Shown: positions 13,645-48,201 of the stretch, in pieces
Layout of the letters: each line of letters starts with the position of its first letter
Numbering within the stretch: position 1 is the first letter of the stretch
Origin: a virus
Taxonomy: Duplodnaviria; Caudoviricetes
IMG/VR virus record: IMGVR_UViG_3300023275_000046
Location: 1-48,201 of that record
DNA length: 48,201 nt
Reading direction: 5' to 3' (one strand)
Made by a program: the position numbers and the translations under genes
The notes under the pieces: generated by a model
Seen by the model: only the letters and a program-made list of their open reading frames with translations
What the model was told of the DNA's origin: nothing
Databases searched by the model: none

Positions 13645-14481
13645 ATGCGGAACCGGATGAAATGGATTTTGGCGGCGGTAGGACTCGTTGGGGCGCCATC
13701 AGCCTTCGCGGCAGTCGACTACACCATACGTGAGTGCAACGGGTGCACTGCGGTAGGAGCTGCCGCGACTGCGGCCCAATACGGGAGCGGACAACGGCTC
13801 GTCTACGACCTTCCCGGCAATCACTTCTACAAGTTCGATTGTGAGCCGGGCTTCGGCGGAACGACTACGTGTACGAGCATTGGTCCGCCGGCCGCCACAC
13901 AGACTGACTTCAACAACTATCGTCTAGCTTGGTTGAACAACGGGCAGTCCGAGACCTTCCATGCCGCGATCAATGTGTCGATCCCTAGCCAGGGAATCCC
14001 AGGTGCGAACGGGCTGCCGATCGACAATGGCAAAATCAATGCGTTTGGAACCATCACCAACAGCAACTACCAATATCAGGTTGATCAATACCTACAGCAG
14101 GAAATTGGAACGGACTTCACTTTCTTCCACATGCCCAACCCAGGTGTGACGAAAGACTTCGAACACGAGACAATGATCGCGGTCGTCACGTTCGACGACG
14201 GAAGCACGCGGACGTTCTTGTTTAACAAGAACGACCTGAGCCCGGCGTTCAATCCAGTGCCGGGCACGGCGAAGGACTCTGCTCATAATGCGCTGCCCGA
14301 CAATATCGGTAGCGTCCCGAGCGGCTTCCATCAGTACAATTTCACAACCGATCCGCACGGCTATGACCGGACCAATATCTACCTGTGGCTGACTCCGACG
14401 GTTACGCCGCCGCCCGATGCGGGCAACTGCCAATCCGAGACCTTCGACGGTGAATCGGTGAACTGTATCCACCCGTTCTAA
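13645..14481 (+). CDS. Secreted Cys-containing hypothetical protein (moron)
   Basis: Sec signal peptide ending AFA|A; CNGC and further Cys pairs; opposite strand to the late genes; followed by its own terminator. Confidence 0.8.
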   Translation: MRNRMKWILAAVGLVGAPSAFAAVDYTIRECNGCTAVGAAATAAQYGSGQRLVYDLPGNHFYKFDCEPGFGGTTTCTSIGPPAATQTDFNNYRLAWLNNGQSETFHAAINVSIPSQGIPGANGLPIDNGKINAFGTITNSNYQYQVDQYLQQEIGTDFTFFHMPNPGVTKDFEHETMIAVVTFDDGSTRTFLFNKNDLSPAFNPVPGTAKDSAHNALPDNIGSVPSGFHQYNFTTDPHGYDRTNIYLWLTPTVTPPPDAGNCQSETFDGESVNCIHPF

Positions 14482-14489
14482 TGGACCAC

Positions 14490-14520
14490 AGCCACGCCCC
14501 CGCAAGGGGCGTGGCTATTT
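14490..14520 (+). terminator. Rho-independent terminator
   Basis: AGCCACGCCCC-CGCAA-GGGGCGTGGCT followed by ATTT. Confidence 0.7.
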
Positions 14521-14533
14521 CAAGGACATCAAC

Positions 14534-14854
14534 GTGGCATCTGCACCGAAGGAAGCAATGCCATGGCTAGCGTTCTGGCGCTGGAACGTCGGCTTCGTGC
14601 TCGTTGCGCTTGTCGTGAACGGCAACTGGTTCGCGCATCAGAACAATCACCTGCCGCTCTTCGGCGTTCTCTTCCTCGTGCTTTGGGTGCCCTTGTTGGC
14701 CGCTGCCGCTCTTACGGGATTGATGACGCTGTTTTTCACGCCCCAGCCGCTGAGCCGCTGGCGCAACATCTTCGTGCCAGTGTTCGGTGTGGCGGTCGCC
14801 GCGGGCTGCATCTTCGGGTGGGTGCTGGCGCTGCGCGGCTTGGTCTTCATGTAG
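14534..14854 (+). CDS. Small integral membrane protein (about 3 TM)
   Basis: AAGGA RBS, GTG start, three hydrophobic segments. Confidence 0.7.
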   Translation: MASAPKEAMPWLAFWRWNVGFVLVALVVNGNWFAHQNNHLPLFGVLFLVLWVPLLAAAALTGLMTLFFTPQPLSRWRNIFVPVFGVAVAAGCIFGWVLALRGLVFM

Positions 14855-16261: not shown

Positions 16262-17971
16262 ATGTCGAGGAATAAGAAGAAAGGTCCGTCCTATGGGCTT
16301 GAAGGGATGACAACGTCAACGCCCGGACGCAATGTTTTATATTACGGAGATAATATATCTGTAATGAAATATATGCCAAAAGATTGCGTTGACCTAATTT
16401 ATCTTGATCCTCCATTCAAGTCTAATGCAAACTACAATCTACTCTATAAAGGTATGACCGGCAAACCAGTGCCGGAACAAGCAGAAGCCTTTTTCGATAC
16501 ATGGGAACTTGATGCGGCTAAGTTGGAGGTCGCCAGGACAATGCCTGTCCTAATGCGGCAGCACGGCGTAGATGATACGTATGTAAATTTTTGGAAGATC
16601 TGGATGGAGGCTTTGAAAAACTCGCAGCCAGAATTGTTAGCTTATCTTATTTATATGGTTCAAAGGCTGCTATACATGAAAACGATCCTACGTCCGACGG
16701 GGTCTATTTTCCTGCACTGCGATCAAACGGCTAGCCACTACATCAAGGTGATGATGGACGGCATCTTTGGTCATGATAATTTCCGTAACGAGATAGTTTG
16801 GAAACGTCAAAGTGCTCACAGTGACGCGCGCAGTAAGTTTTCTGCTGTGTCGGATGCGATATTGTTTTACGCAGCTAGCAAGCACGCGAAGTTCTTTCCG
16901 CAGTACGTGGATCATGACCCCGATTACGTGGACAAGTTTTATAGATTCGATGATAACGACGGCCGGGGACGATACAGATTAGGGGACATGTCAGCTCCCA
17001 AGGGTGGCGGAATGGCCGCAATTAATAGGAACACCGGGCTTCCTAATGGATGGCATGTGTATAAAGGCTTCGAACCGCCTGCGACGGGTTGGCGGTATAG
17101 CCCTGAGACTCTTGCGAGGCTTGATTCAGAGGGGCGAATCTATTTTCCCAGGCACAAGGATGGACAACTTGACACATCGCGCCGGCTCGCGTTGAAGAGA
17201 TATCTCGATGAGCAGAAGGGCTCGATTGTAACGAACGTCTGGACTGACATTTCACCGGTGCAAGGCGGAGAGTCGCTGGGTTATCCGACACAAAAGCCGG
17301 TAAGTCTGCTGGAAAGGATTATTGCTTCAACGACAGAGCCCGGAGATATCGTTTTCGATCCTTTTTGCGGCTGTGGCACAACGGTTTATGCCGCTTCCAA
17401 ATTGAATCGCAAATGGATTGGCTGCGACATCGCTATTTTGGCGATAAAGCTGGTTCGGGAAGTTCTATCTGAGAAATATCGACTGGTCGAAGGTAACGAC
17501 TTTGATGTCGATGGGATTCCAGTAAGTGTGGAACAGGCTGAGGAATTATTCAATAGCGACCCGTTCCAGTTTCAGCATTGGCTGGTTGAGAGGGTCGGGG
17601 GTCTGCCGATGCAAAAAAAAGTAGCCGATCGTGGTATTGATGGTCGCCTTTATTTCGAAGTTAATAAAAATCTGGAGGAGATGGTCCTATCGGTAAAGGG
17701 TGGCAAACTTCGACCTACCGATGTTCGCGATCTTCGCGGGGTAATAGAAAGAGAGAAGAGCGCGATGGGTGGATTTTTGAGCCTTAGCGAACCGTCAAAG
17801 GCCATGCGACTTGAAGCGGCTGAAGCGGGTATGTACGAGTGCAATGGTGTTAAATATCCCAGACTGCAGCTTTTGACCGTTCGCGACGTTCTTGAAGGGA
17901 AAAAATCGCTTTTGACCCCCACTAAGTTAAATACGCGAATAAGTTCTGGTCAGCAGTCATTGGCGTTGTAG
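16262..17971 (+). CDS. N6A/N4C DNA methyltransferase (beta class, Mod-like) fused to a C-terminal Mrr-like nuclease domain
   Basis: DLIYLDPPF (motif IV), YPTQKP, DPFCGCGTT (motif I); C-terminal FQHW...DRGIDG...SVKGG...VRDLRG; markedly AT-rich. Confidence 0.88.
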   Translation: MSRNKKKGPSYGLEGMTTSTPGRNVLYYGDNISVMKYMPKDCVDLIYLDPPFKSNANYNLLYKGMTGKPVPEQAEAFFDTWELDAAKLEVARTMPVLMRQHGVDDTYVNFWKIWMEALKNSQPELLAYLIYMVQRLLYMKTILRPTGSIFLHCDQTASHYIKVMMDGIFGHDNFRNEIVWKRQSAHSDARSKFSAVSDAILFYAASKHAKFFPQYVDHDPDYVDKFYRFDDNDGRGRYRLGDMSAPKGGGMAAINRNTGLPNGWHVYKGFEPPATGWRYSPETLARLDSEGRIYFPRHKDGQLDTSRRLALKRYLDEQKGSIVTNVWTDISPVQGGESLGYPTQKPVSLLERIIASTTEPGDIVFDPFCGCGTTVYAASKLNRKWIGCDIAILAIKLVREVLSEKYRLVEGNDFDVDGIPVSVEQAEELFNSDPFQFQHWLVERVGGLPMQKKVADRGIDGRLYFEVNKNLEEMVLSVKGGKLRPTDVRDLRGVIEREKSAMGGFLSLSEPSKAMRLEAAEAGMYECNGVKYPRLQLLTVRDVLEGKKSLLTPTKLNTRISSGQQSLAL

Positions 17972-18964: not shown

Positions 18965-20381
18965 TTACGCCGCCTTCGCCGGGGCCGGCTTGTTTGCCGG
19001 ATCGTTCTCCGGCGGCGGCTTCGAGCCAGGCGCAGGCAATGGCGGCATGCCCGACTCGTCGATGCGGGTCTTTTCGTCTTCCCACTCGAGTTCTTCTTCA
19101 AGCAAACCGCGCCGCTTCGCCTCGTTGAACAGGGTCTCGTCGGACAACACGCGGGAATTGCGCATCGACAGCAAGAACGTCATCGACTCGACCGGCGCCA
19201 TGTCGGGGTCGAGGTTTGGCTGCGCCTTCGCGCCGCCGCCCTTGTCTTCGCCGCGCTGCTCCGCGATGAGGTCGGCCAGGTCGACAAGCGTGTCGTCGAG
19301 CTGCTGAACCATGCCGCCGAGTCGGGAATTCTCGCCGCGCGTTTCCTCGCCGGACTGGGTCGCCGTCTTCACGCCCTCAGCGAAAACGAGCAGCTTCGCG
19401 CCGGCCTGCCGCATTTCGTCTTTCAGCGCGTCGAGCGCGGTGCGGCCGGCACCGATCGCGGCGCCGGTGTGCTCCACGTACTTCATGTCGCCATCGAGCG
19501 GCAGGTTCACGCCGTGCTTGGCGCCAATCGTGATCCCACTCTTTTCACCCTCGACGTCGAGTCCGATGGTGCACAGAATCGGCACGCTCGCCGTTTCGAC
19601 CAGCATGTCGTTGTCGCTCTGCATGCGCCAATGCTTCGCGTTCAACTGGGCGAGTTCGAGCAGCGGCGGCCGCGCGATCATGAAGCCGGTGCGATTGCAG
19701 TACAGCGTGACGATAGGGATGCGATCCTGCCCCGGCACGGGAATTTCCTGCACGAGCGACCATTTGCCGCCGTCGCCTTTCTGGTGCACCGACACCTTGC
19801 CTACCTCGTAAACGCGGATCTGCTCGACAATGTGCGTGCCATAGTCGCCGTCGTCTTCCTCGACGCAGAATTTCACGCGCAACTGGGTCAGCTTGCCGGC
19901 GCCATCGGTGCGCCAACCCAACACGTCGCGCGGCGAAACGCGCGTGCAGTACGGCCGCACGCCGGCTTTTTTCTGGTCCGCTAGCGTCTTCACCTCTGCG
20001 GCGTTCGTGTTGTCGACAATGACGTGCGACAACCCGTAGTTGAATGCCTGCTCGAACCATTTATAGACGAACACGTGCAGGTTCGCCGGTCAAGTCGATG
20101 TTAGGGAACACCTCGGTCTTGATCCACTCGGGCGTCTTGTCGTCGAGTAGCAGCGGCTCGGCGAATACGCGCCCGACCATCGTCGCAACGGTCTCGCTGT
20201 ACGCAGGGTACAGGGTCGCGAAGTCAAGGCGTGCCCTGTATTCGTCAGGCTCTTCGAGTGGTCGCCTCGGCAAGTACGTTTCGGCGGCTCGGCGCATGGC
20301 CTTCGTGCCGCCTAGCAGGGCGTCGATCAGATCGAAATCGGCCCACATCGTGACGCAGGACTCGTGCGGTTTGTCGATCAT
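18965..20381 (-). pseudogene. Portal protein (DUF4055 family) split by a frameshift at about 20084
   Basis: N-part ALLGGTKAMRRAAETYLP...EY.ARL...NIDLTG; continuation NLHVFVYKWF...YGLSHVIVD...PPLLELAQLN.KHW in another frame. Confidence 0.85.
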
Positions 20382-22090: not shown

Positions 22091-22546
22091 TTACTTGCCG
22101 GCCCCGGCAGTGCGGATCGCGACCTTGTCGGCGGTGCACAGCCGCAACGCCTCGCGGTACTGCTGACGCATCGTCGCGAGCTGGCCGTTGCAGAACACGC
22201 GCGCCGTGCCGTCCCAGCACGCCGCATCGGGCTCGGCCAGGGTGCAGGGCTGCAGCAGCGCCGGGTCGACGGGCACGCGGACTTCGCGAGGCACCTCGAC
22301 GGCGATCGACTTGACGACGGGGCGTGTGGGGCCACAGGCGGTGAGGCCCACGGCCAGGACGGCGCACGCGATCCAGTGCAAGTGCGATCCGATGTACGAC
22401 CAGAGCCAGCGGGCGCCCTCGATCAGCGCCCATCCCGCGACCGCGACGCACAGCAGGAAAAGGAGGAAGGCGCCGGCCAATCCGTCGTAGTTGATGAAGC
22501 CGCGCTGCCGCGAGGCAAGGCGGTGACGAGTGTAGTTCGTGTTCAT
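22091..22546 (-). CDS. Rz1-like o-spanin lipoprotein with N-terminal membrane extension
   Basis: Internal lipobox LTAC, VPVDPALLQPC...NGQL...ALRLC..DK.AIR; GGAG RBS at 22546; alternative TTG start at 22381. Confidence 0.7.
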   Translation of the reverse strand: MNTNYTRHRLASRQRGFINYDGLAGAFLLFLLCVAVAGWALIEGARWLWSYIGSHLHWIACAVLAVGLTACGPTRPVVKSIAVEVPREVRVPVDPALLQPCTLAEPDAACWDGTARVFCNGQLATMRQQYREALRLCTADKVAIRTAGAGK

Positions 22547-22558
22547 CGCGATGCTCCG

Positions 22559-22855
22559 TTAGGTCGAGGTCTCGATCAGCGCGTCGATCGCTGCGAGCGC
22601 GATGGCGGCCTCTTCCTGAGAAGGCGCCTGCGCCTGCACGACAATCCGCATGCCGCGCAACTGCTCGACGTCGCTTTCGCCCACCATGCCGATCAGCGCG
22701 TTGCGCAAGCGCGTGATGACCGGCTCGTCCGCCGCTCGGATCGCCTTGCGCATCACGCCCGGGTTGATCCACTCCGGCGGGAAATGACCATTCGCTGCTG
22801 CGACCGCTTCGCAGGCAGCGCGCACGCGTGCATCCATGTTGATTCCACCGTTCAT
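22559..22855 (-). CDS. Hypothetical protein
   Basis: ATGA-coupled ORF in the late operon. Confidence 0.6.
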   Translation of the reverse strand: MNGGINMDARVRAACEAVAAANGHFPPEWINPGVMRKAIRAADEPVITRLRNALIGMVGESDVEQLRGMRIVVQAQAPSQEEAAIALAAIDALIETST

Positions 22856-23058
22856 GCGCCCTCCAATTCACCCGGATAGCACCAGATTTCCCGCACAGAC
22901 TCGTCGTCCCACGTGCGAATCCGGTAGTTCGTTACGCCGCCCATTTCGACCATCACCGCGACAACGGTTCCGGTTCTGTCGATCGGAACGATGCGAACGC
23001 GTCGGCCGATGCCGTAGCGCACGCTGATCGATTGCGGAGTCTCGACCTCGTCGCTCAC
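22852..23058 (-). CDS. Hypothetical protein (68 aa, SH3/KOW-like pattern)
   Basis: GTGA overlap; YGIGRRVRIVPIDRTGTVVAV...WCYPGELE. Confidence 0.6.
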   Translation of the reverse strand: MSDEVETPQSISVRYGIGRRVRIVPIDRTGTVVAVMVEMGGVTNYRIRTWDDESVREIWCYPGELEGA

Positions 23059-23423
23059 GGCACGACCCCGCATGCAGGTTGCGACGCCCAGTCGCGGCAG
23101 CGCCCGTCGAGCACGGCCGACAGCTTCGCGCGCGCGGCCTGGGCGTCCTGCGCGATGGCTGCGCGATCGGTCTCGCGCTGCGCCAGCGCCGCGAGGTTGC
23201 CCGCGCGATCGAACACTCGACCCGCCTCGCAATCCGCGATGCTGTCCTTGAGCGCGTCTATCGTGACTTGTGACGAATCGTTTGCGTCAGCGACCTTGTC
23301 GACCTTCGCCTCGGCGCGTGCCGCATTGACGGCGCTCGCGCGCCACTGCAGCGCGTTGCCGGTAAGGCTGGTCACGAGCGCTAGGCAGACCCAGGCGAGC
23401 GTTGGAACGGCGTTGATATTCAT
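23055..23423 (-). CDS. Rz-like i-spanin
   Basis: N-terminal TM, Ala-rich coiled coil, C-terminal CRDWASQP. Confidence 0.7.
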   Translation of the reverse strand: MNINAVPTLAWVCLALVTSLTGNALQWRASAVNAARAEAKVDKVADANDSSQVTIDALKDSIADCEAGRVFDRAGNLAALAQRETDRAAIAQDAQAARAKLSAVLDGRCRDWASQPACGVVP

Positions 23424-23524
23424 CGTTGCTTGCTCCGTTTCCTGTTGCGTTCAATCTGCAGCTGCAAAATCGCTTTCTGTCGCGCCGCCTTGTCCAGCAG
23501 CCAGGCGTCGAGGCGGAAAGTCAT
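23420..23524 (-). CDS. Possible 34-aa basic peptide
   Basis: MTFRLDAWLLDKAARQKAILQLQIERNRKRSKQR; stop overlaps the i-spanin ATG. Confidence 0.35.
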   Translation of the reverse strand: MTFRLDAWLLDKAARQKAILQLQIERNRKRSKQR

Positions 23525-23565
23525 CCTTGGCCGCGCGGTCACCCCAACGAAGCGCGGCAGCGGAA

Positions 23566-23769
23566 TCAGAGACGACTGCACGCGTGGTCGATCGGTACGT
23601 GCGGCACCGGCTTGTGATCGGCGCATCGCGTGCCATCCGTGGCGGGCCGAAGCCATGGTTGATGGCTCGGCACCTGCCCCGGCGGGTGATGCCTCGGTGC
23701 GCGCACGCAATCGAGGCATGCGCGCAGGTCGGCGCCGAGGCAGAGTGCGTAGTACATCGCCTGGGTCAA
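23566..23769 (-). CDS. Small Cys/His-rich hypothetical protein
   Basis: ATGA overlap with the upstream gene, AAGGA RBS; CxxC motif. Confidence 0.5.
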   Translation of the reverse strand: MTQAMYYALCLGADLRACLDCVRAPRHHPPGQVPSHQPWLRPATDGTRCADHKPVPHVPIDHACSRL

Positions 23770-24143
23770 TCCTTGGTGCCCGGATCGCCAACGTCGAACC
23801 AGTCGCCAAGGCGCGGAGGCTCATCGGCGATGTCGAAGCCGACGACGTCGAGTGCGCCTACGAACGGCTGTCGGGGCTCGAGCCAGGTCGGCGTCCTGTA
23901 AACGAACAGGTCGAAGTCGACAACCGCCGAGGCGTCCCGGCCGTCGAGGAAGCGAACCTTGACCGGGTTCACCTCGTCGACCACGAGCATGGTCTGCTGC
24001 GCCTCGTTCACCGTGTAGTACGGGTAGACGAGAGCCTGTCCGAGCGCATCGGGGCTGAGGTCGACTGCCTGCCCGAGACCGGCGAATCCAGCGACGCCGC
24101 AGATGCCGGCGACAATGGCAGTGGTGAGCGCGTTTCGCTTCAT
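23766..24143 (-). CDS. Secreted truncated homologue of a proteobacterial S-layer/cell-surface protein N-terminus
   Basis: GAAGGAG RBS; MKRNALTTAIVAGICGVAGFAGLGQA|VDLSPDALGQALVYPYYTV...VKVRFLDG...VVDFDLF; similarity recalled, not searched. Confidence 0.7.
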   Translation of the reverse strand: MKRNALTTAIVAGICGVAGFAGLGQAVDLSPDALGQALVYPYYTVNEAQQTMLVVDEVNPVKVRFLDGRDASAVVDFDLFVYRTPTWLEPRQPFVGALDVVGFDIADEPPRLGDWFDVGDPGTKD

Positions 24144-24171
24144 CGGTGTTGCTCCTTCGTTGGGGGTTGGG

Positions 24172-24654
24172 TCAGTGGAACGTGCCGAGACACATCGAAA
24201 GCTCGCTGTCGCGACGCTTCACCAGTCCAGGCAATTCGATCGTCATGCCGAGGCGCGTTGCATGCGTCCATCGCGTGAGTTGATGGCACCACGTCGTCGC
24301 AGGCGCGCCAGCGTTGATCATTCGCAGCATCGTGGAGCCGCAGAACGCGCGTCCGCCGACGTTGAACGTGAACGACACGAGCGCTGCGGCCTCGTTCGTC
24401 TTGAGCGGCACGCGCACGCACTGCTCGACGGCTGCGTAGGCCTCGCGCAGGTCCGCGGCAAGAAGCGCCTTGCACGTGTCTGTGGTGAATGTCTGTCCTG
24501 GGGCTATGTCCGGGCCGGTATGACCGGTGCATGCGGTCGGCACGCCGACAGGATCGATGTAGGTGTGCGGGACGACGCCCTCGTAGTACACGACGAGCGG
24601 CGAAGCGATGGCGATGGCAGATGCTGCGATGCCGGCGAGCAGCTTGTTGTTCAC
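24172..24654 (-). CDS. SAR endolysin, T4-like lysozyme (GH24)
   Basis: GTG 24654; weakly hydrophobic Ala/Gly N-terminus; E-x8-D-x5-T triad (EGVVPHTYIDPVGVPT); FTFNVG; LPGLVKRR. Confidence 0.92.
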   Translation of the reverse strand: MNNKLLAGIAASAIAIASPLVVYYEGVVPHTYIDPVGVPTACTGHTGPDIAPGQTFTTDTCKALLAADLREAYAAVEQCVRVPLKTNEAAALVSFTFNVGGRAFCGSTMLRMINAGAPATTWCHQLTRWTHATRLGMTIELPGLVKRRDSELSMCLGTFH

Positions 24655-24947
24655 GGCGGATGCTCCGCGCGATCGATTTTCCCTTCGATGTCGTGCACGC
24701 GCAGGTCGAGTCGCTCGATGCGCTTTTCCACGCTGTCGATGCGTGCGTTCGTGCCGGACGAATTGACCTCGATCGTCGTGATCCGCGGCTTTATCTCCGC
24801 GATGTCGGTATGCGACTCGATGGTGGCCTGCAGCGCCCACAAGATCGCAGCCGTGGCGATCGACAACATGACCGACTGGAAGCGTCGCTCGCGCTGAATC
24901 TTGAGTTCGCGCCGCGCGTCTTCGGCCTTCTCGGTGGGTTCGGTCAT
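24651..24947 (-). CDS. Putative holin-position single-TM coiled-coil protein
   Basis: GAGGA RBS; one TM; directly upstream of the endolysin. Confidence 0.55.
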   Translation of the reverse strand: MTEPTEKAEDARRELKIQRERRFQSVMLSIATAAILWALQATIESHTDIAEIKPRITTIEVNSSGTNARIDSVEKRIERLDLRVHDIEGKIDRAEHPP

Positions 24948-25051
24948 GCTTTCCTCTGCGATGGTCGGCCAATCAGCCCAGCGGGAGCGCGCAACAAGCC
25001 TTGGCCCGCCGGAGTTTTTCCACGCGCAGTTGCAGAGAGGCACGAGCCGGC

Positions 25052-25351
25052 TTATCCCCCCTGCACCTCTGGCGCTGTGGCAGACACAGTGCGAGCAGGG
25101 GGCGTTGACACGGAACCAGCACGGGTCAACACCCGGTGGACAATGGCCACATCGACGTCGAAAAAGCGGGCGATCCGGCGCAGCGAATAGCCCAATTCGC
25201 GCGCCACGATGATGAGGGTGTCGCGCTGGCGCATCTGCGCACGGATCGCGATGTCGGTCGCGACGACAGCATCGTCGAGGCGCAGCCCCGCACGCGTCAT
25301 CTCGCCCTGCAGGCCTCGCCTACTGATGCCGAGGCGATCGCAGTGGTTCAT
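25052..25351 (-). CDS. HTH transcription regulator, candidate late-gene activator (Mor-like position and pattern)
   Basis: RQRDTLII...GYSLRRIARFFDVDVAIVHRVL; last gene before the lysis cassette. Confidence 0.6.
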   Translation of the reverse strand: MNHCDRLGISRRGLQGEMTRAGLRLDDAVVATDIAIRAQMRQRDTLIIVARELGYSLRRIARFFDVDVAIVHRVLTRAGSVSTPPARTVSATAPEVQGG

Positions 25352-25491
25352 GCCCATCCACGGGCCTCCGTGTAGCGACGACGTGCGGCCTGGACGCGCG
25401 TATCGATCAGTGCAGCCGCCTTGCCGAACGCCTCGCATAAGGCTTCGAACACGGCGACGAATTCCTGCGCTAGCTGTTGCAACGTGCTCAT
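25348..25491 (-). CDS. 47-aa hypothetical protein
   Basis: ATGA overlaps at both ends; MSTLQQLAQEFVAVFEALCEAFG. Confidence 0.5.
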   Translation of the reverse strand: MSTLQQLAQEFVAVFEALCEAFGKAAALIDTRVQAARRRYTEARGWA

Positions 25492-25880
25492 GCGGCGATC
25501 CGATTACGAGCTTGGTAGGGTGTGATGCGGAGCACGACGGCACCGAACAGGATCATTTCGAGCCGTTCCACGGTGTGCTTTGCGACTTGGCAGTCATCGC
25601 GCCAAATCTCGATCGCGGTCAGCGCGTCGAACAGCGGCTTCACGATGTTGTCGGTGTCTCGGCGCCGATCGTCGGGGACGTGCATGTCTATTTCGACTTG
25701 CAGGAGGCCGGTCAGGGGCTCAGCCGGCACACGACCGCATCTACGCTCCGGTGCGATGATTCGAGCAACTGCATCCCTGTAGCGCTGCCCTTCGGCCGAG
25801 ATGAGCACCTTGGCGCCGACATGGCGCCAATGATGGTTCGCGCTCGGCGGGTAGGGCAGGTACAGGGTCAGCGGCTTCAT
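25488..25880 (-). CDS. rusA: RusA family Holliday junction resolvase
   Basis: LPYPPSAN..WR, PDDRRRDTDNIVKPLFDAL...WRDDCQV. Confidence 0.92.
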   Translation of the reverse strand: MKPLTLYLPYPPSANHHWRHVGAKVLISAEGQRYRDAVARIIAPERRCGRVPAEPLTGLLQVEIDMHVPDDRRRDTDNIVKPLFDALTAIEIWRDDCQVAKHTVERLEMILFGAVVLRITPYQARNRIAA

Positions 25881-31163: not shown

Positions 31164-31373
31164 TGACGTGCAGGCTTATCGGACAGGGAAAAGCGAATGG
31201 ATGACGACAAGAAAGTTGTTCGCGCACTCGATGAACAGATCGAACTCTTTCCGCACAGGACGCGGCGCAACGCGCCATGGCTTCGCAGCGGAGTGATGTT
31301 GCTGGACGAACCCCGGAACGAGGTCGCTGCGAATCGCATTGAAGAATCCCCCGGCACTACAGGTGTCACGAAC

Positions 31374-31580
31374 TCAAGCCGCCTTCACGCCCTGCCAAGG
31401 AAACTGCGGGGCCAATTTCGTGCGCGGAACATCGGTCGCAGCCTCGATTGCAGGGGCATGCTTTGCCGGCACGCATCCCTCCCTCAGCCATCGGGTGATC
31501 GCTTGGGGGTGCTGGCCGCACAGGCGAGCCAGGGCGGCTTGGGAACCGAGAGCTTCGACGGCTTGGCGGACGGCGTTCAT
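31374..31580 (-). CDS. cro: Cro/YdaS-like repressor (68 aa)
   Basis: GSQAALARLCGQHPQAITRW...VPAKHAPAIEAAT; divergent from cI. Confidence 0.88.
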   Translation of the reverse strand: MNAVRQAVEALGSQAALARLCGQHPQAITRWLREGCVPAKHAPAIEAATDVPRTKLAPQFPWQGVKAA

Positions 31581-31586
31581 GCAAAC

Positions 31587-31670
31587 AGTAAACACGATGT
31601 TTACGATGAAGTCAACATAGTGTTTCTTGACGCGGATGGACGCCGCCGCGACTATCAACAAATGGTTGAT
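31587..31670. promoter_or_regulatory. OR region: three 17-bp operators, pR and pRM
   Basis: GTAAACACGATGTTTAC (31588), GTCAACATAGTGTTTCT (31611), ATCAACAAATGGTTGAT (31654); minus TTGACT-N17-TTTACT; plus TTGACG-N17-GACTAT. Confidence 0.75.
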
Positions 31671-32414
31671 ATCAAGTTGAAGACGTTCGAAGGTCGCTTC
31701 GACGCCGCGCTCGCGCAGTGCGGACTTACGCGCGCTGAGTTCGCCAGGTTCCCAGGCATCGGCCAGGCCAACATCACGAACTGGAAAAAGCGGGGCGGCG
31801 TGGGTCAGACGTCCGGGCCGCGCGTCCGCGAGCTACTCGGGGTCTCGCTCGAATGGCTGAATTCTGGACACGGCGAACCGTTCCCGAACGGCCCTACGGT
31901 ATACGCCAACGGGAAGCCGCTCCCGCACACTCCACGCGTCCCCGCGTATTCGATCCGAGGTGTCGATGACGAAACGTTTGACCCCTCGCTCGATGTACTA
32001 ATCGACGTTGTCGATGTCGAGCTTTCCGCCGGCAACGGGCGCTCCGTACCTGAGTTTCGAAAGACGAGGCGCCAGCTCGCGTTTTCGATCGACTGGGTTC
32101 GCAGGAAACGATTCAAAGAATCGGCGCTAAAGGTCATGCCAGTGCACGGTGACTCGATGCTGCCGAAGCTGGCCGATGGCGACACCGTGCTCATCAACAC
32201 CGACGACACGCGTATCGTTGACGGGAAGATTTACGCCTTGATGCTCGGGCGTGAGGCGAAAATAAAAACGCTGCGCTGGCGAGCCGATGGTTCGCTGATC
32301 GTCATCAGCGAAAACAAGGATAAGGAGACCTATCCTGACGAGGTCATTCCGCCGGCTGACGCCGCGGATGTCTACATCATAGGCAGAGCGGTGCAGCGCG
32401 CCGGCGATCTGTAG
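31662..32414 (+). CDS. cI: CI-like repressor, HTH + S24 peptidase
   Basis: N-terminal HTH, LSAGNG cleavage site, GDSM catalytic Ser, AKIK catalytic Lys. Confidence 0.92.
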   Translation: MVDIKLKTFEGRFDAALAQCGLTRAEFARFPGIGQANITNWKKRGGVGQTSGPRVRELLGVSLEWLNSGHGEPFPNGPTVYANGKPLPHTPRVPAYSIRGVDDETFDPSLDVLIDVVDVELSAGNGRSVPEFRKTRRQLAFSIDWVRRKRFKESALKVMPVHGDSMLPKLADGDTVLINTDDTRIVDGKIYALMLGREAKIKTLRWRADGSLIVISENKDKETYPDEVIPPADAADVYIIGRAVQRAGDL

Positions 32415-46493: not shown

Positions 46494-46660
46494 CGCCCCA
46501 GGACATTGCGACGTGGCACATGGTGTTTTTTGGCCACCGAATGCGCGCGCTCGAAATCGTGGCGCAGCGGATGCCTAAGGCGACGCCCGAAGAACTCACG
46601 AAAGAGGCCGACAAGCTGCTGCGGTGGGCCGCCGCGACTGACCAATCGAGCACGTCATGA
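46490..46660 (+). CDS. 56-aa hypothetical protein
   Basis: ATGA overlaps at both ends; MTPQDIATWHMVFFGHRMRALE. Confidence 0.5.
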   Translation: MTPQDIATWHMVFFGHRMRALEIVAQRMPKATPEELTKEADKLLRWAAATDQSSTS

Positions 46661-46869
46661 GCATGTACCTCACCCCCGATGAAGTCGCCGAAATCACGGA
46701 CTGCAAGCGCCGGGACACCCAGTGCGAGCGCCTGGCGAAGATGGGAATTCCGTTCCGGCCGTCGTTCGCTGGCCGCCCCCTTGTTGAGCGCGCGGCCGTG
46801 CTGACGTATAAGGATCGACCGCAGAAAAAGCGGTCGGAACCCAACTTCGACGCGATCAAGGTGGCATGA
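46657..46869 (+). CDS. DUF4224 excisionase-like protein
   Basis: YLTPDEVAEITD.KR...Q...L..MGIPF....GRPLV...EPNF; directly upstream of the integrase. Confidence 0.82.
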   Translation: MSMYLTPDEVAEITDCKRRDTQCERLAKMGIPFRPSFAGRPLVERAAVLTYKDRPQKKRSEPNFDAIKVA

Positions 46870-46870
46870 C

Positions 46871-47848
46871 GTGAGCCGCAGGATCCACAAGCGCCTATAT
46901 TTCGATCACGGCGCGTACTACTACGTCGCGCGGTCGGGCGGAAAGGTGAAGTGGACGAAGCTCTCTGCCGACTATGGCGACGCTCTGCGGAAATGGGCCG
47001 AGATTGAGGGCGGCGCGAAGCCGAGGGCGTGGACCGTCGGCGAGGCGATTGCGCACTACCTCACGGTCTCTGCCCAACGCCTTAGCAAGATCACGCTCGC
47101 CGGCTACGCGCAGAACGCGCGGCACCTGCTGCCCGTGTTCGGGCACGTCTCGATCGAAGACGTCACGCGCGCCCATGTGTACGCGTACGTTGTCAAGCGA
47201 GGCAATTATGCCGGCAACCGCGAGCGCGGATTACTGTCAGCCGTGTACGCGCATCTCGGACGATCCGGCGTGTTCAACGGCCAGAACCCCGCCGGTGGCA
47301 TGCGGTTTCGAAATCCAGAAAAGCCGCGCAAGCGCTACGTCACCGACGAAGAATTGCACGCCTTGTTGGCTGCGGCGAGTCCCCGCATGCGAAACCTATT
47401 TTCGTTCGCCTACCTCACTGGCATGCGACAGGCCGACGTGATCGGATTGCGGTTAACTGCGGCGACCGACGAAGGCATCGCATACACAATGCAGAAAACC
47501 GGCGAGGCGCACCTGATCGCCTGGACAGACGAACTTCGCGCGTTATGGAAAGAGGCCGCGCGCAGTCGCATCGGCGCGCAACCGTTGTTCCTCGCGCGTG
47601 ACGGCATCGCATATAAATCGAGTGGTCTGCAGGCTGCTACGCGCAGGATCGCGAAGCGTGCGGGGCTCGTCGATTTGCACTTTCACGACCTACGACGGAA
47701 GGCCGGCAGCGACAGCGTTGACCTGGGCAGCGCGCAGGAGCTTCTAGGCCATGTCGACAGCAAGGTCACACGCCGTCACTACCGTGCGAAACTGGTCGCA
47801 GCGACGCCGGTCGACATGCCGAGTGTTAGGCAGAATCCAAAACGTTAG
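46871..47848 (+). CDS. int: Tyrosine integrase
   Basis: TGMR, QKT, FHDLRR, LLGH, RRHY catalytic residues all present. Confidence 0.93.
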   Translation: MSRRIHKRLYFDHGAYYYVARSGGKVKWTKLSADYGDALRKWAEIEGGAKPRAWTVGEAIAHYLTVSAQRLSKITLAGYAQNARHLLPVFGHVSIEDVTRAHVYAYVVKRGNYAGNRERGLLSAVYAHLGRSGVFNGQNPAGGMRFRNPEKPRKRYVTDEELHALLAAASPRMRNLFSFAYLTGMRQADVIGLRLTAATDEGIAYTMQKTGEAHLIAWTDELRALWKEAARSRIGAQPLFLARDGIAYKSSGLQAATRRIAKRAGLVDLHFHDLRRKAGSDSVDLGSAQELLGHVDSKVTRRHYRAKLVAATPVDMPSVRQNPKR

Positions 47849-47852
47849 GCAG
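47825..47852 (+). repeat. Tandem GTTAGGCAG direct repeats, candidate integrase arm sites
   Basis: Copies at 47825-47833 and 47844-47852, between int and the host junction. Confidence 0.55.
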
Positions 47853-47922
47853 TGCGACAGCGCGCGGTAACCGGAAAGTCGCGCGCCGCCTCACTCTGCC
47901 AGAAGCGCGCAAAAGTGTCGTC

Positions 47923-48201
47923 TTGATGGTGAGTCATGGCGACAACGATCACGCCGGCGGCGCGCCAGCGGTCGCGAAGGCGTATCCGGAAGCGCAGCGC
48001 TATACGGGCGAGCCGCAGCGCTTGCCGATATCCGCCGCGCAGTGCCGCGCGGGGCAGGCCTGGCGCTGGGATGACGTCGGATTCCGCGTGCTCGGCCCGC
48101 TGCCGGCCGCACTCGGCGATGCGCCGGCGGCAAACGACAACGATCGCTCCTGCGTCCTGCTGGTCGAGGGCGCGGCGGGACGGTTGTTGCTGACCGGCGA
48201 C
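47923..48201 (+). pseudogene. comEC: 3' fragment of host comEC/rec2 (metallo-beta-lactamase domain), interrupted by the prophage; runs off the window edge
   Basis: Absent from the ORF track; translation LMVSHGDNDHAGG...CRAGQAWRWDDVGFRVLGP...NDNDRSCVLLVEG..GRLLLTGD; in-frame TAG upstream at 47827. Confidence 0.9.

Follow-up and report, generated by a model that had tools for sequence, protein, structure and literature searches.

The question raised by this locus is why a temperate phage carries, in the midst of its lysis genes, a 125-codon gene whose front part resembles the start of a much longer bacterial surface protein. The gene is located in a window of 48,201 nucleotides, the whole stretch of DNA analysed here (IMG/VR record IMGVR_UViG_3300023275_000046, positions 1 to 48,201). 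A preliminary description had proposed that the phage captured the export signal and first domain of an S-layer protein, fused to an unrelated acidic tail, as a dominant-negative poison, in effect a fourth lysis component, or as a receptor decoy.

The prophage and its lysis genes

The window represents a temperate prophage with integrase, excisionase and repressor genes, along with head and tail genes. The features on which the analysis relies are the following:

47923..48201, plus strand, fragment of host comEC past the integrase, with the best matches in Dokdonella genomes
46871..47848, plus strand, integrase, a marker of a temperate prophage
46657-46869, excisionase, a marker of a temperate prophage
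31197-32414, repressor, a marker of a temperate prophage
24651..24947, minus strand, likely holin with one hydrophobic stretch and a weak XhlA-like match (E 0.036)
24172..24654, minus strand, SAR-type endolysin (phage lysozyme PF00959), from the domain match and the N-terminus
24152..24158, minus strand, ribosome-binding site GAAGGAG, 8 nt before the ATG and unlike the host npdA ribosome-binding site
23766..24143, minus strand, the 125-aa chimeric gene, from an ORF check, ribosome-binding site, codon use and the relative P0123
23566..23769, minus strand, orf67, a small Cys-rich ORF
23055..23423, minus strand, candidate Rz-like i-spanin (phrog_5151, E 0.008; homologue in prophage locus L111)
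22091..22546, minus strand, o-spanin-like ORF (phrog_456, E 3e-4; LysC, E 0.042)

The frame claimed in the preliminary description is real, running on the minus strand from 24143 to 23766 and encoding 125 amino acids behind a good ribosome-binding site, and it does directly follow the SAR endolysin gene, with 28 nt between the stop of the phage lysozyme and the ATG. Its own stop overlaps the start of orf67 (67 codons). The codon usage of the gene (score 0.27, GC3 0.82) is inside the range of the large genes of the phage, and the similarity to host npdA DNA begins at the ATG, behind the phage ribosome-binding site. One contig of the likely source run covers the stretch with 0 differences and is not independent of it. 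The endolysin has a Gly/Ala-rich hydrophobic stretch at the N-terminus followed by E25-D34-T40, which we take to be the mark of a SAR endolysin, and homologues of the putative holin are syntenic in L111 and L143. The o-spanin-like ORF (22091-22546) has a hydrophobic extension of ∼60 aa ahead of a lipobox-like LTAC site, and two small ORFs separate it from the Rz-like gene.

The comEC fragment is matched in 47 of 50 genomes, all 50 chosen for carrying the donor gene discussed below, with the highest identities of 78% (Dokdonella sp.), 76% and 74% (D. ginsengisoli), and because these best matches are to Dokdonella, the host likely belongs to this genus. The prophage apparently resides inside comEC, with the C-terminal part of ComEC encoded after the integrase (46871-48201), an insertion that would be expected to disable DNA uptake. 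The left end of the prophage lies outside the window; a 58,283-bp contig encoding the 125-aa protein exists. The head module includes genes on the opposite (plus) strand at 13645-14854 and 16262-17971, namely, a 278-aa ORF with a likely signal peptide, a 106-aa membrane ORF without a PHROG match and a DNA methyltransferase, which are likely further accessory genes. The portal gene appears to be split into two overlapping minus-strand ORFs (20061-20381, 106 aa, and 18965-20074, 369 aa), possibly by a frameshift.

The front end: the start of a probable NpdA-type S-layer protein

As the preliminary description had anticipated, the gene product is similar to the N-terminus of long surface proteins: codons 1-87 are ∼60% identical to the start of NpdA-type proteins of ∼490 aa, and the motifs quoted there, including VKVRF and VVDFDL, are indeed present. 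Of 1007 longer candidates, 380 match the 125-aa protein at E≤0.001, and the best 120 of these 380 show 50-62% identity over 65-86% of the query, are nearly all 440-540 aa long and, where named, come from Rhodanobacteraceae/Dokdonella; one match is the ‘Cell surface protein' of Dokdonella soli. The matching part divides into two segments:

24066..24143, minus strand, codons 1-26, likely Sec signal peptide from an NpdA-type protein, with the putative cleavage site between GQA and V (between ANA and V in the host)
23883..24065, minus strand, codons 27-87, main strands one to four of the beta-sandwich at the NpdA N-terminus

As modelled by AlphaFold (pLDDT 92.7), the D. soli protein consists of a low-confidence N-terminal helix ahead of a folded part with main strands at 37-44, 50-57, 62-71, 77-85 and 90-97, on to ∼229. 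That the phage captured the N-terminus of a host S-layer protein along with its export signal is supported, whereas capture of its ‘first domain' is not, in that the phage gene holds only four strands of a predicted domain that spans residues ∼34-230. The rest of the host npdA-type gene is absent from the window, and the 125-aa protein, of which only codons 1-87 match the NpdA family, is not a full-length two-domain subunit; it would presumably be unable to form a lattice alone, and on its own it models poorly (pLDDT 51). The kept part is rich in near-invariant family positions. In the 125-aa protein, 21 of 35 family-conserved positions are kept and 14 are lost, the loop 57-64 is rebuilt relative to NpdA, and the strand core motifs GQxLVYPYYTV, VKVRF and VVDFDL are kept both there and in its closest relative, P0123.

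In the full-length host protein, the N-terminal domain is predicted to be a beta-sandwich like TM1070 (1nc7) and the Anabaena sensory rhodopsin transducer (2ii7). Residues 34-230 of the host model align to TM1070 over 104 residues (Z 8.8, rmsd 2.4), a likeness of fold only (15% identity, Foldseek E 0.047), and the phage protein holds about half of this domain. The model of the donor-type protein P0103 (L004 10001-11470) has a high-confidence fold with a TM1070/ASRT-like N-terminal domain and a C-terminal half that is barely covered by the fold search. A search of the ESM Atlas yields clusters without names and, at 0.78, a weak link to Slr4.

The ∼490-aa donor proteins have no Pfam, PHROG, NCBIfam or PDB sequence match, and their genes directly follow a gsp cluster, with T2SSF/G/H/M and secretin genes upstream in L004, L025 and L050. 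NpdA, known from Delftia acidovorans Cs1-4 and Paracidovorax citrulli (PMC3110197, PMC10765051), is described in the accessible text of PMC10765051 as a proven S-layer protein with a signal peptide, encoded after a gsp cluster and with orthologues in genera that include Dokdonella, Rudaea and Tahibacter; according to the same text, Rudaea cellulosilytica is among the 16 imaged cultures and no Dokdonella is. The donor proteins are assigned to the NpdA family because they share with it the size, signal peptide, lack of a known (Pfam) domain, gsp position and genus list and have betaproteobacterial-type relatives, so that the family name stands on these proxies rather than on an alignment to proven NpdA (DelCs14_2799, AAVE_RS20655). 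From these relatives, we infer that the actual host of the phage has an S-layer. The phage gene differs from npdA in having 87 of the ∼490 codons, a foreign tail, a phage ribosome-binding site and no gsp cluster.

Both the 125-aa protein (P0002) and P0123 have a cysteine at position 15 of the signal peptide, preceded by A-G-I, where the closest hosts have an alanine. The lipobox consensus is [LVI][ASTVI][GAS]C, and this canonical form is not present in either protein. Many Rhodanobacteraceae genomes (G003, G147, G217, G242, G304 and others) encode several npdA-like paralogues, with up to 10 npdA-like matches in Tahibacter aquaticus. One of these, G003:C4:222723-222857 (L089 5709-6089), is a truncated chromosomal paralogue of 126 aa, with no phage genes seen nearby.

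The tail: probable scraps of the same host locus

The rest of the protein (aa 88-125) is acidic, as originally described, with 9 D/E compared with 3 K/R, but not unrelated, because similar sequence is found in the host locus past the npdA start. Three pieces can be delineated:

23860..23876, minus strand, PRQPFV, weakly matching the 3' end of npdA in a shifted frame and possibly a relic of it
23828..23850, minus strand, possible relic of a methyltransferase gene, DVVGFDI compared with DVVGVDI, in frame; a moderate to weak match
23780..23831, minus strand, relic of an unannotated gene of ∼620 codons, IADEPPRLGDW compared with IAK[AD]PPRLGDW, in frame and on the same strand

The PPRLGDW-type core motif is found 7.4-10 kb after the npdA start in 35 of the 53 loci that are long enough, and the score of the real P0002 tail is attained by 0-1 of 150 shuffled versions of it in each of five single loci. 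In a comparison of the tail DNA with 29 host loci, two distinct stretches reach scores of 49 and 41, and the two taken together as a collinear pair reach 77, values that 0 of 690 control phage tiles attain (maxima 43, 36 and 72, respectively). Each of five genomes not picked for it has a single occurrence of the PRLG[DG]W codon pattern, located in the npdA locus, compared with three occurrences of the reversed pattern across the same five genomes. Genome-wide, the npdA locus is the top match of the tail DNA in three of five genomes picked for good locus matches and in none of five unselected genomes. The PPRLGDW piece quite probably comes from the host npdA locus, although the result in the unselected genomes speaks against it.

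Such an origin is less certain for the other two pieces. The methyltransferase gene is located ∼6.2 kb downstream of npdA and is matched at 22 of 23 nt at best, by a common string, and the npdA 3' piece falls below the background (best score 24, compared with a control median best of 30) and is not significant alone. All pieces follow the order of the host locus, that is, npdA start, npdA end, methyltransferase and 620-aa gene, as would be expected if an S-layer locus had collapsed into this gene. In the simplest history, the phage would have taken up a block of ∼9 kb starting at npdA, and this block would then have shrunk through deletions because a phage head cannot long hold extra DNA. Antisense matches of the tail and of the short proteins P0166, P0251 and P0303 to host loci (scores 46-61; 29 of 45 nt) were treated as background, and a 12-nt match between ‘MYY' at the orf67 start and the methyltransferase end was rejected as being out of order.

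In the hosts, the conserved block after npdA (L004 13373-20143, L025 12946-18826 and equivalents) encodes a PPIase, an ABC-2/Wzt transporter, the methyltransferase, the ∼620-aa protein, which has no Pfam match and a weak PqqD-like NCBIfam match (E 0.0065), and a GT2 glycosyltransferase, and is likely an S-layer-linked glycan locus; ‘glycosyl' is absent from the main text of PMC10765051.

Relatives and selection

The tail is carried by two proteins only, the 125-aa protein and P0123 (141 aa), which match end to end with 69% identity and group together with 100/99 support on a long stem in a tree of 39 rows (P0178 left out). With the linker 83-91 left out, the differences between the two are conservative (mean BLOSUM +1.05, compared with −0.51 in the null; 0 of 5000), as are all 28 differences taken together (0.39 compared with −0.57; 8 of 5000); for the tail only, the test is marginal (206 of 5000). 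The tail is identical at 30 of 34 positions, and the front parts at 46 of 55 and 20 of 27. In comparison with 18 host genes, dN is 0.21-0.22 and dS is 0.87-1.04, which translates into a dN/dS of ∼0.25-0.32 on the phage branch compared with 0.05 among the hosts (medians over 65 codons, with one mis-parsed host row of the 18, L028, left in). The preliminary description had suggested dN/dS as a check on the gene; judging from these substitution patterns, the gene is under purifying selection.

Five further short, diverged NpdA-like proteins were detected: P0166 (nine contigs of up to 42.5 kb), P0286, P0251, P0303 and P0279. The seven short proteins require at least three changes on the tree; a single clade also fits (p-AU 0.114). 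Scans of IMG/VR with P0002, the P0002/P0123 alignment, the tail pattern, P0103, P0123 and P0166 revealed no true relative, the two loci that match P0002 being 17-aa chance matches, and there is no relative among GenBank phages; in one metagenome scan, only the window's own record matched. The front end is matched in 123 of 401 genomes of the host family (unpublished G323 adds one count), and none of the 150 matches listed, with 130 more unlisted, extends beyond profile position 118. Most of the short protein matches seem to be pieces of host genes, cut off at a contig end or broken by a frameshift, and seven short-frame genome matches were rejected as frameshifted, contig-end or truncated chromosomal copies with no phage context.

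An optional gene in a variable slot

If the gene were a fourth lysis component, as had been suggested, it would be expected to accompany endolysin genes in related cassettes, and the survey proposed along with that suggestion found the contrary. The fragment is absent from ±1.5 kb around 30 endolysin loci of the host family (31 matches in 28 of the 401 genomes), and only three of these 28 genomes carry npdA, so that the fair count is 0 of 3. The empty site is seen in the Dokdonella prophage L143, where the endolysin gene runs directly into the orf67 homologue, the stop of the former overlapping the start of the latter. The G107 prophage has the same gene order, rusA, HTH, holin, endolysin, Rz-like, o-spanin-like and terS, interspersed with other small genes. 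A core lysis gene should be conserved in related cassettes of hosts with the same barrier, and the 125-codon gene is not; like an accessory gene, it is inserted between genes that are adjacent in relatives. By the evidence of gene order, it is an insertion in a variable slot, an optional accessory and not required lysis machinery.

A moron in the strict sense has its own promoter and terminator. In the region 22800-25500, there is no promoter consensus (0 sigma-70 sites), and the two terminator-like sites compare with 1.5 ± 1.5 expected by chance. The lack of a promoter consensus makes it likely that the gene shares the late lysis transcript.

Possible functions

We tentatively favor, at odds of roughly one in three, the prediction that the 125-aa protein is an accessory inhibitor, made late and exported, that interferes with the export or assembly of the S-layer. 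Under this scenario, late expression would come from read-through of the lysis transcript, the signal peptide would send the protein through Sec, like NpdA, and the unfinished subunit, with the family's most conserved strands, would engage the NpdA export or assembly path as a dead-end partner, so hampering export or assembly of new S-layer; a protein made this late could presumably affect only new lattice, not the lattice already built. A half-domain that models poorly alone is more in keeping with a poison of assembly or export than with a receptor decoy, which would have to fold. This proposal is weakened because only two proteins carry the tail and because prophages in the three npdA-bearing genomes lack the fragment, and the loss of 14 of the 35 conserved residues could reflect drift away from binding NpdA just as readily as adaptation.

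A competing, if doubtful, explanation is that the NpdA export signal and first strands are reused as a mere carrier, with the selected function residing in the acidic tail and unrelated to the S-layer; for example, the protein may tune lysis in the periplasm or compete with the SAR endolysin for Sec. That the tail is as conserved as the front, that many NpdA-invariant residues are lost with the loop rebuilt, and that the products of both neighbor genes also have N-terminal hydrophobic export signals would all be accounted for, but preservation of the core motifs of all four strands in both proteins goes beyond the needs of a signal.

It is also unlikely, despite a late-operon position that would be suitable, that the fragment is released at lysis and binds the lattice on debris, or blocks its display, so that the progeny are spared re-adsorption. 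S-layers are reported to serve as phage receptors elsewhere (PMC9615553, PMC12680318), and masking of LamB by lambda Lom, as cited in 10.64898/2026.10.24.761521, provides a precedent; yet the fragment is half a domain that models poorly, and a true receptor mimic would be expected to inactivate the phage's own progeny.

We consider it improbable that the gene is a near-neutral relic of a transduced block of host DNA, kept open mainly to carry ribosomes into orf67 and the spanin genes. The rarity of this gene form in the scans, the overlap of its stop with the next start, the mosaic origin and a dN/dS five to six times that of the hosts are all compatible with such a relic. An open frame alone, however, does not predict conservative substitutions at the level observed (0 of 5000 and 8 of 5000) or a dN/dS well under 1, and a stop was gained in half to two thirds of neutral simulations.

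The strong form of the original proposal, a fourth, required lysis component for breaching the S-layer, is very improbable even with the position directly after the endolysin gene, the tight junctions and a host that likely has an S-layer, since the holin-endolysin-spanin cassettes of three npdA-bearing genomes lack the gene and four other small ORFs interrupt the cassette of the window as well, so that position says little.

Comparison with other envelope-targeted phage genes

The bor and lom genes of lambda and llp of T5 are accessory envelope genes located near lysis or late genes, and Llp acts by receptor masking. The gene described here is similar in being an optional, small, apparently envelope-targeted gene in a variable phage slot. 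The difference is that those genes encode whole folded proteins or lipoproteins, whereas this one joins the truncated form of a host structural protein to a pieced-together tail, has AGI-C without a canonical lipobox and has no promoter of its own that we could find. It appears to be a variation on the envelope accessory genes that phages capture, represented by two sequences and with a predicted function. A literature search, with most subscription journals outside its coverage, found no phage-borne NpdA fragment or dominant-negative S-layer inhibitor and no dedicated protein described for phage exit from, or avoided re-adsorption to, S-layer-coated Gram-negative cells. A more ambitious and, in our estimate, unlikely generalization is that phages of NpdA-coated bacteria have more than once made an S-layer inhibitor from the most conserved NpdA half-domain, with a 9-kb host locus collapsed here into one selected gene of 378 bp.

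Should the 125-aa protein indeed block the export or assembly of NpdA, it would be a dedicated factor for leaving S-layer-coated cells or avoiding re-adsorption to them, and a convenient tool for studying the NpdA family, on which little work has been done. Irrespective of what the protein does, the gene appears to represent a traceable new phage gene, made from in-order scraps of one host cluster and kept under selection.
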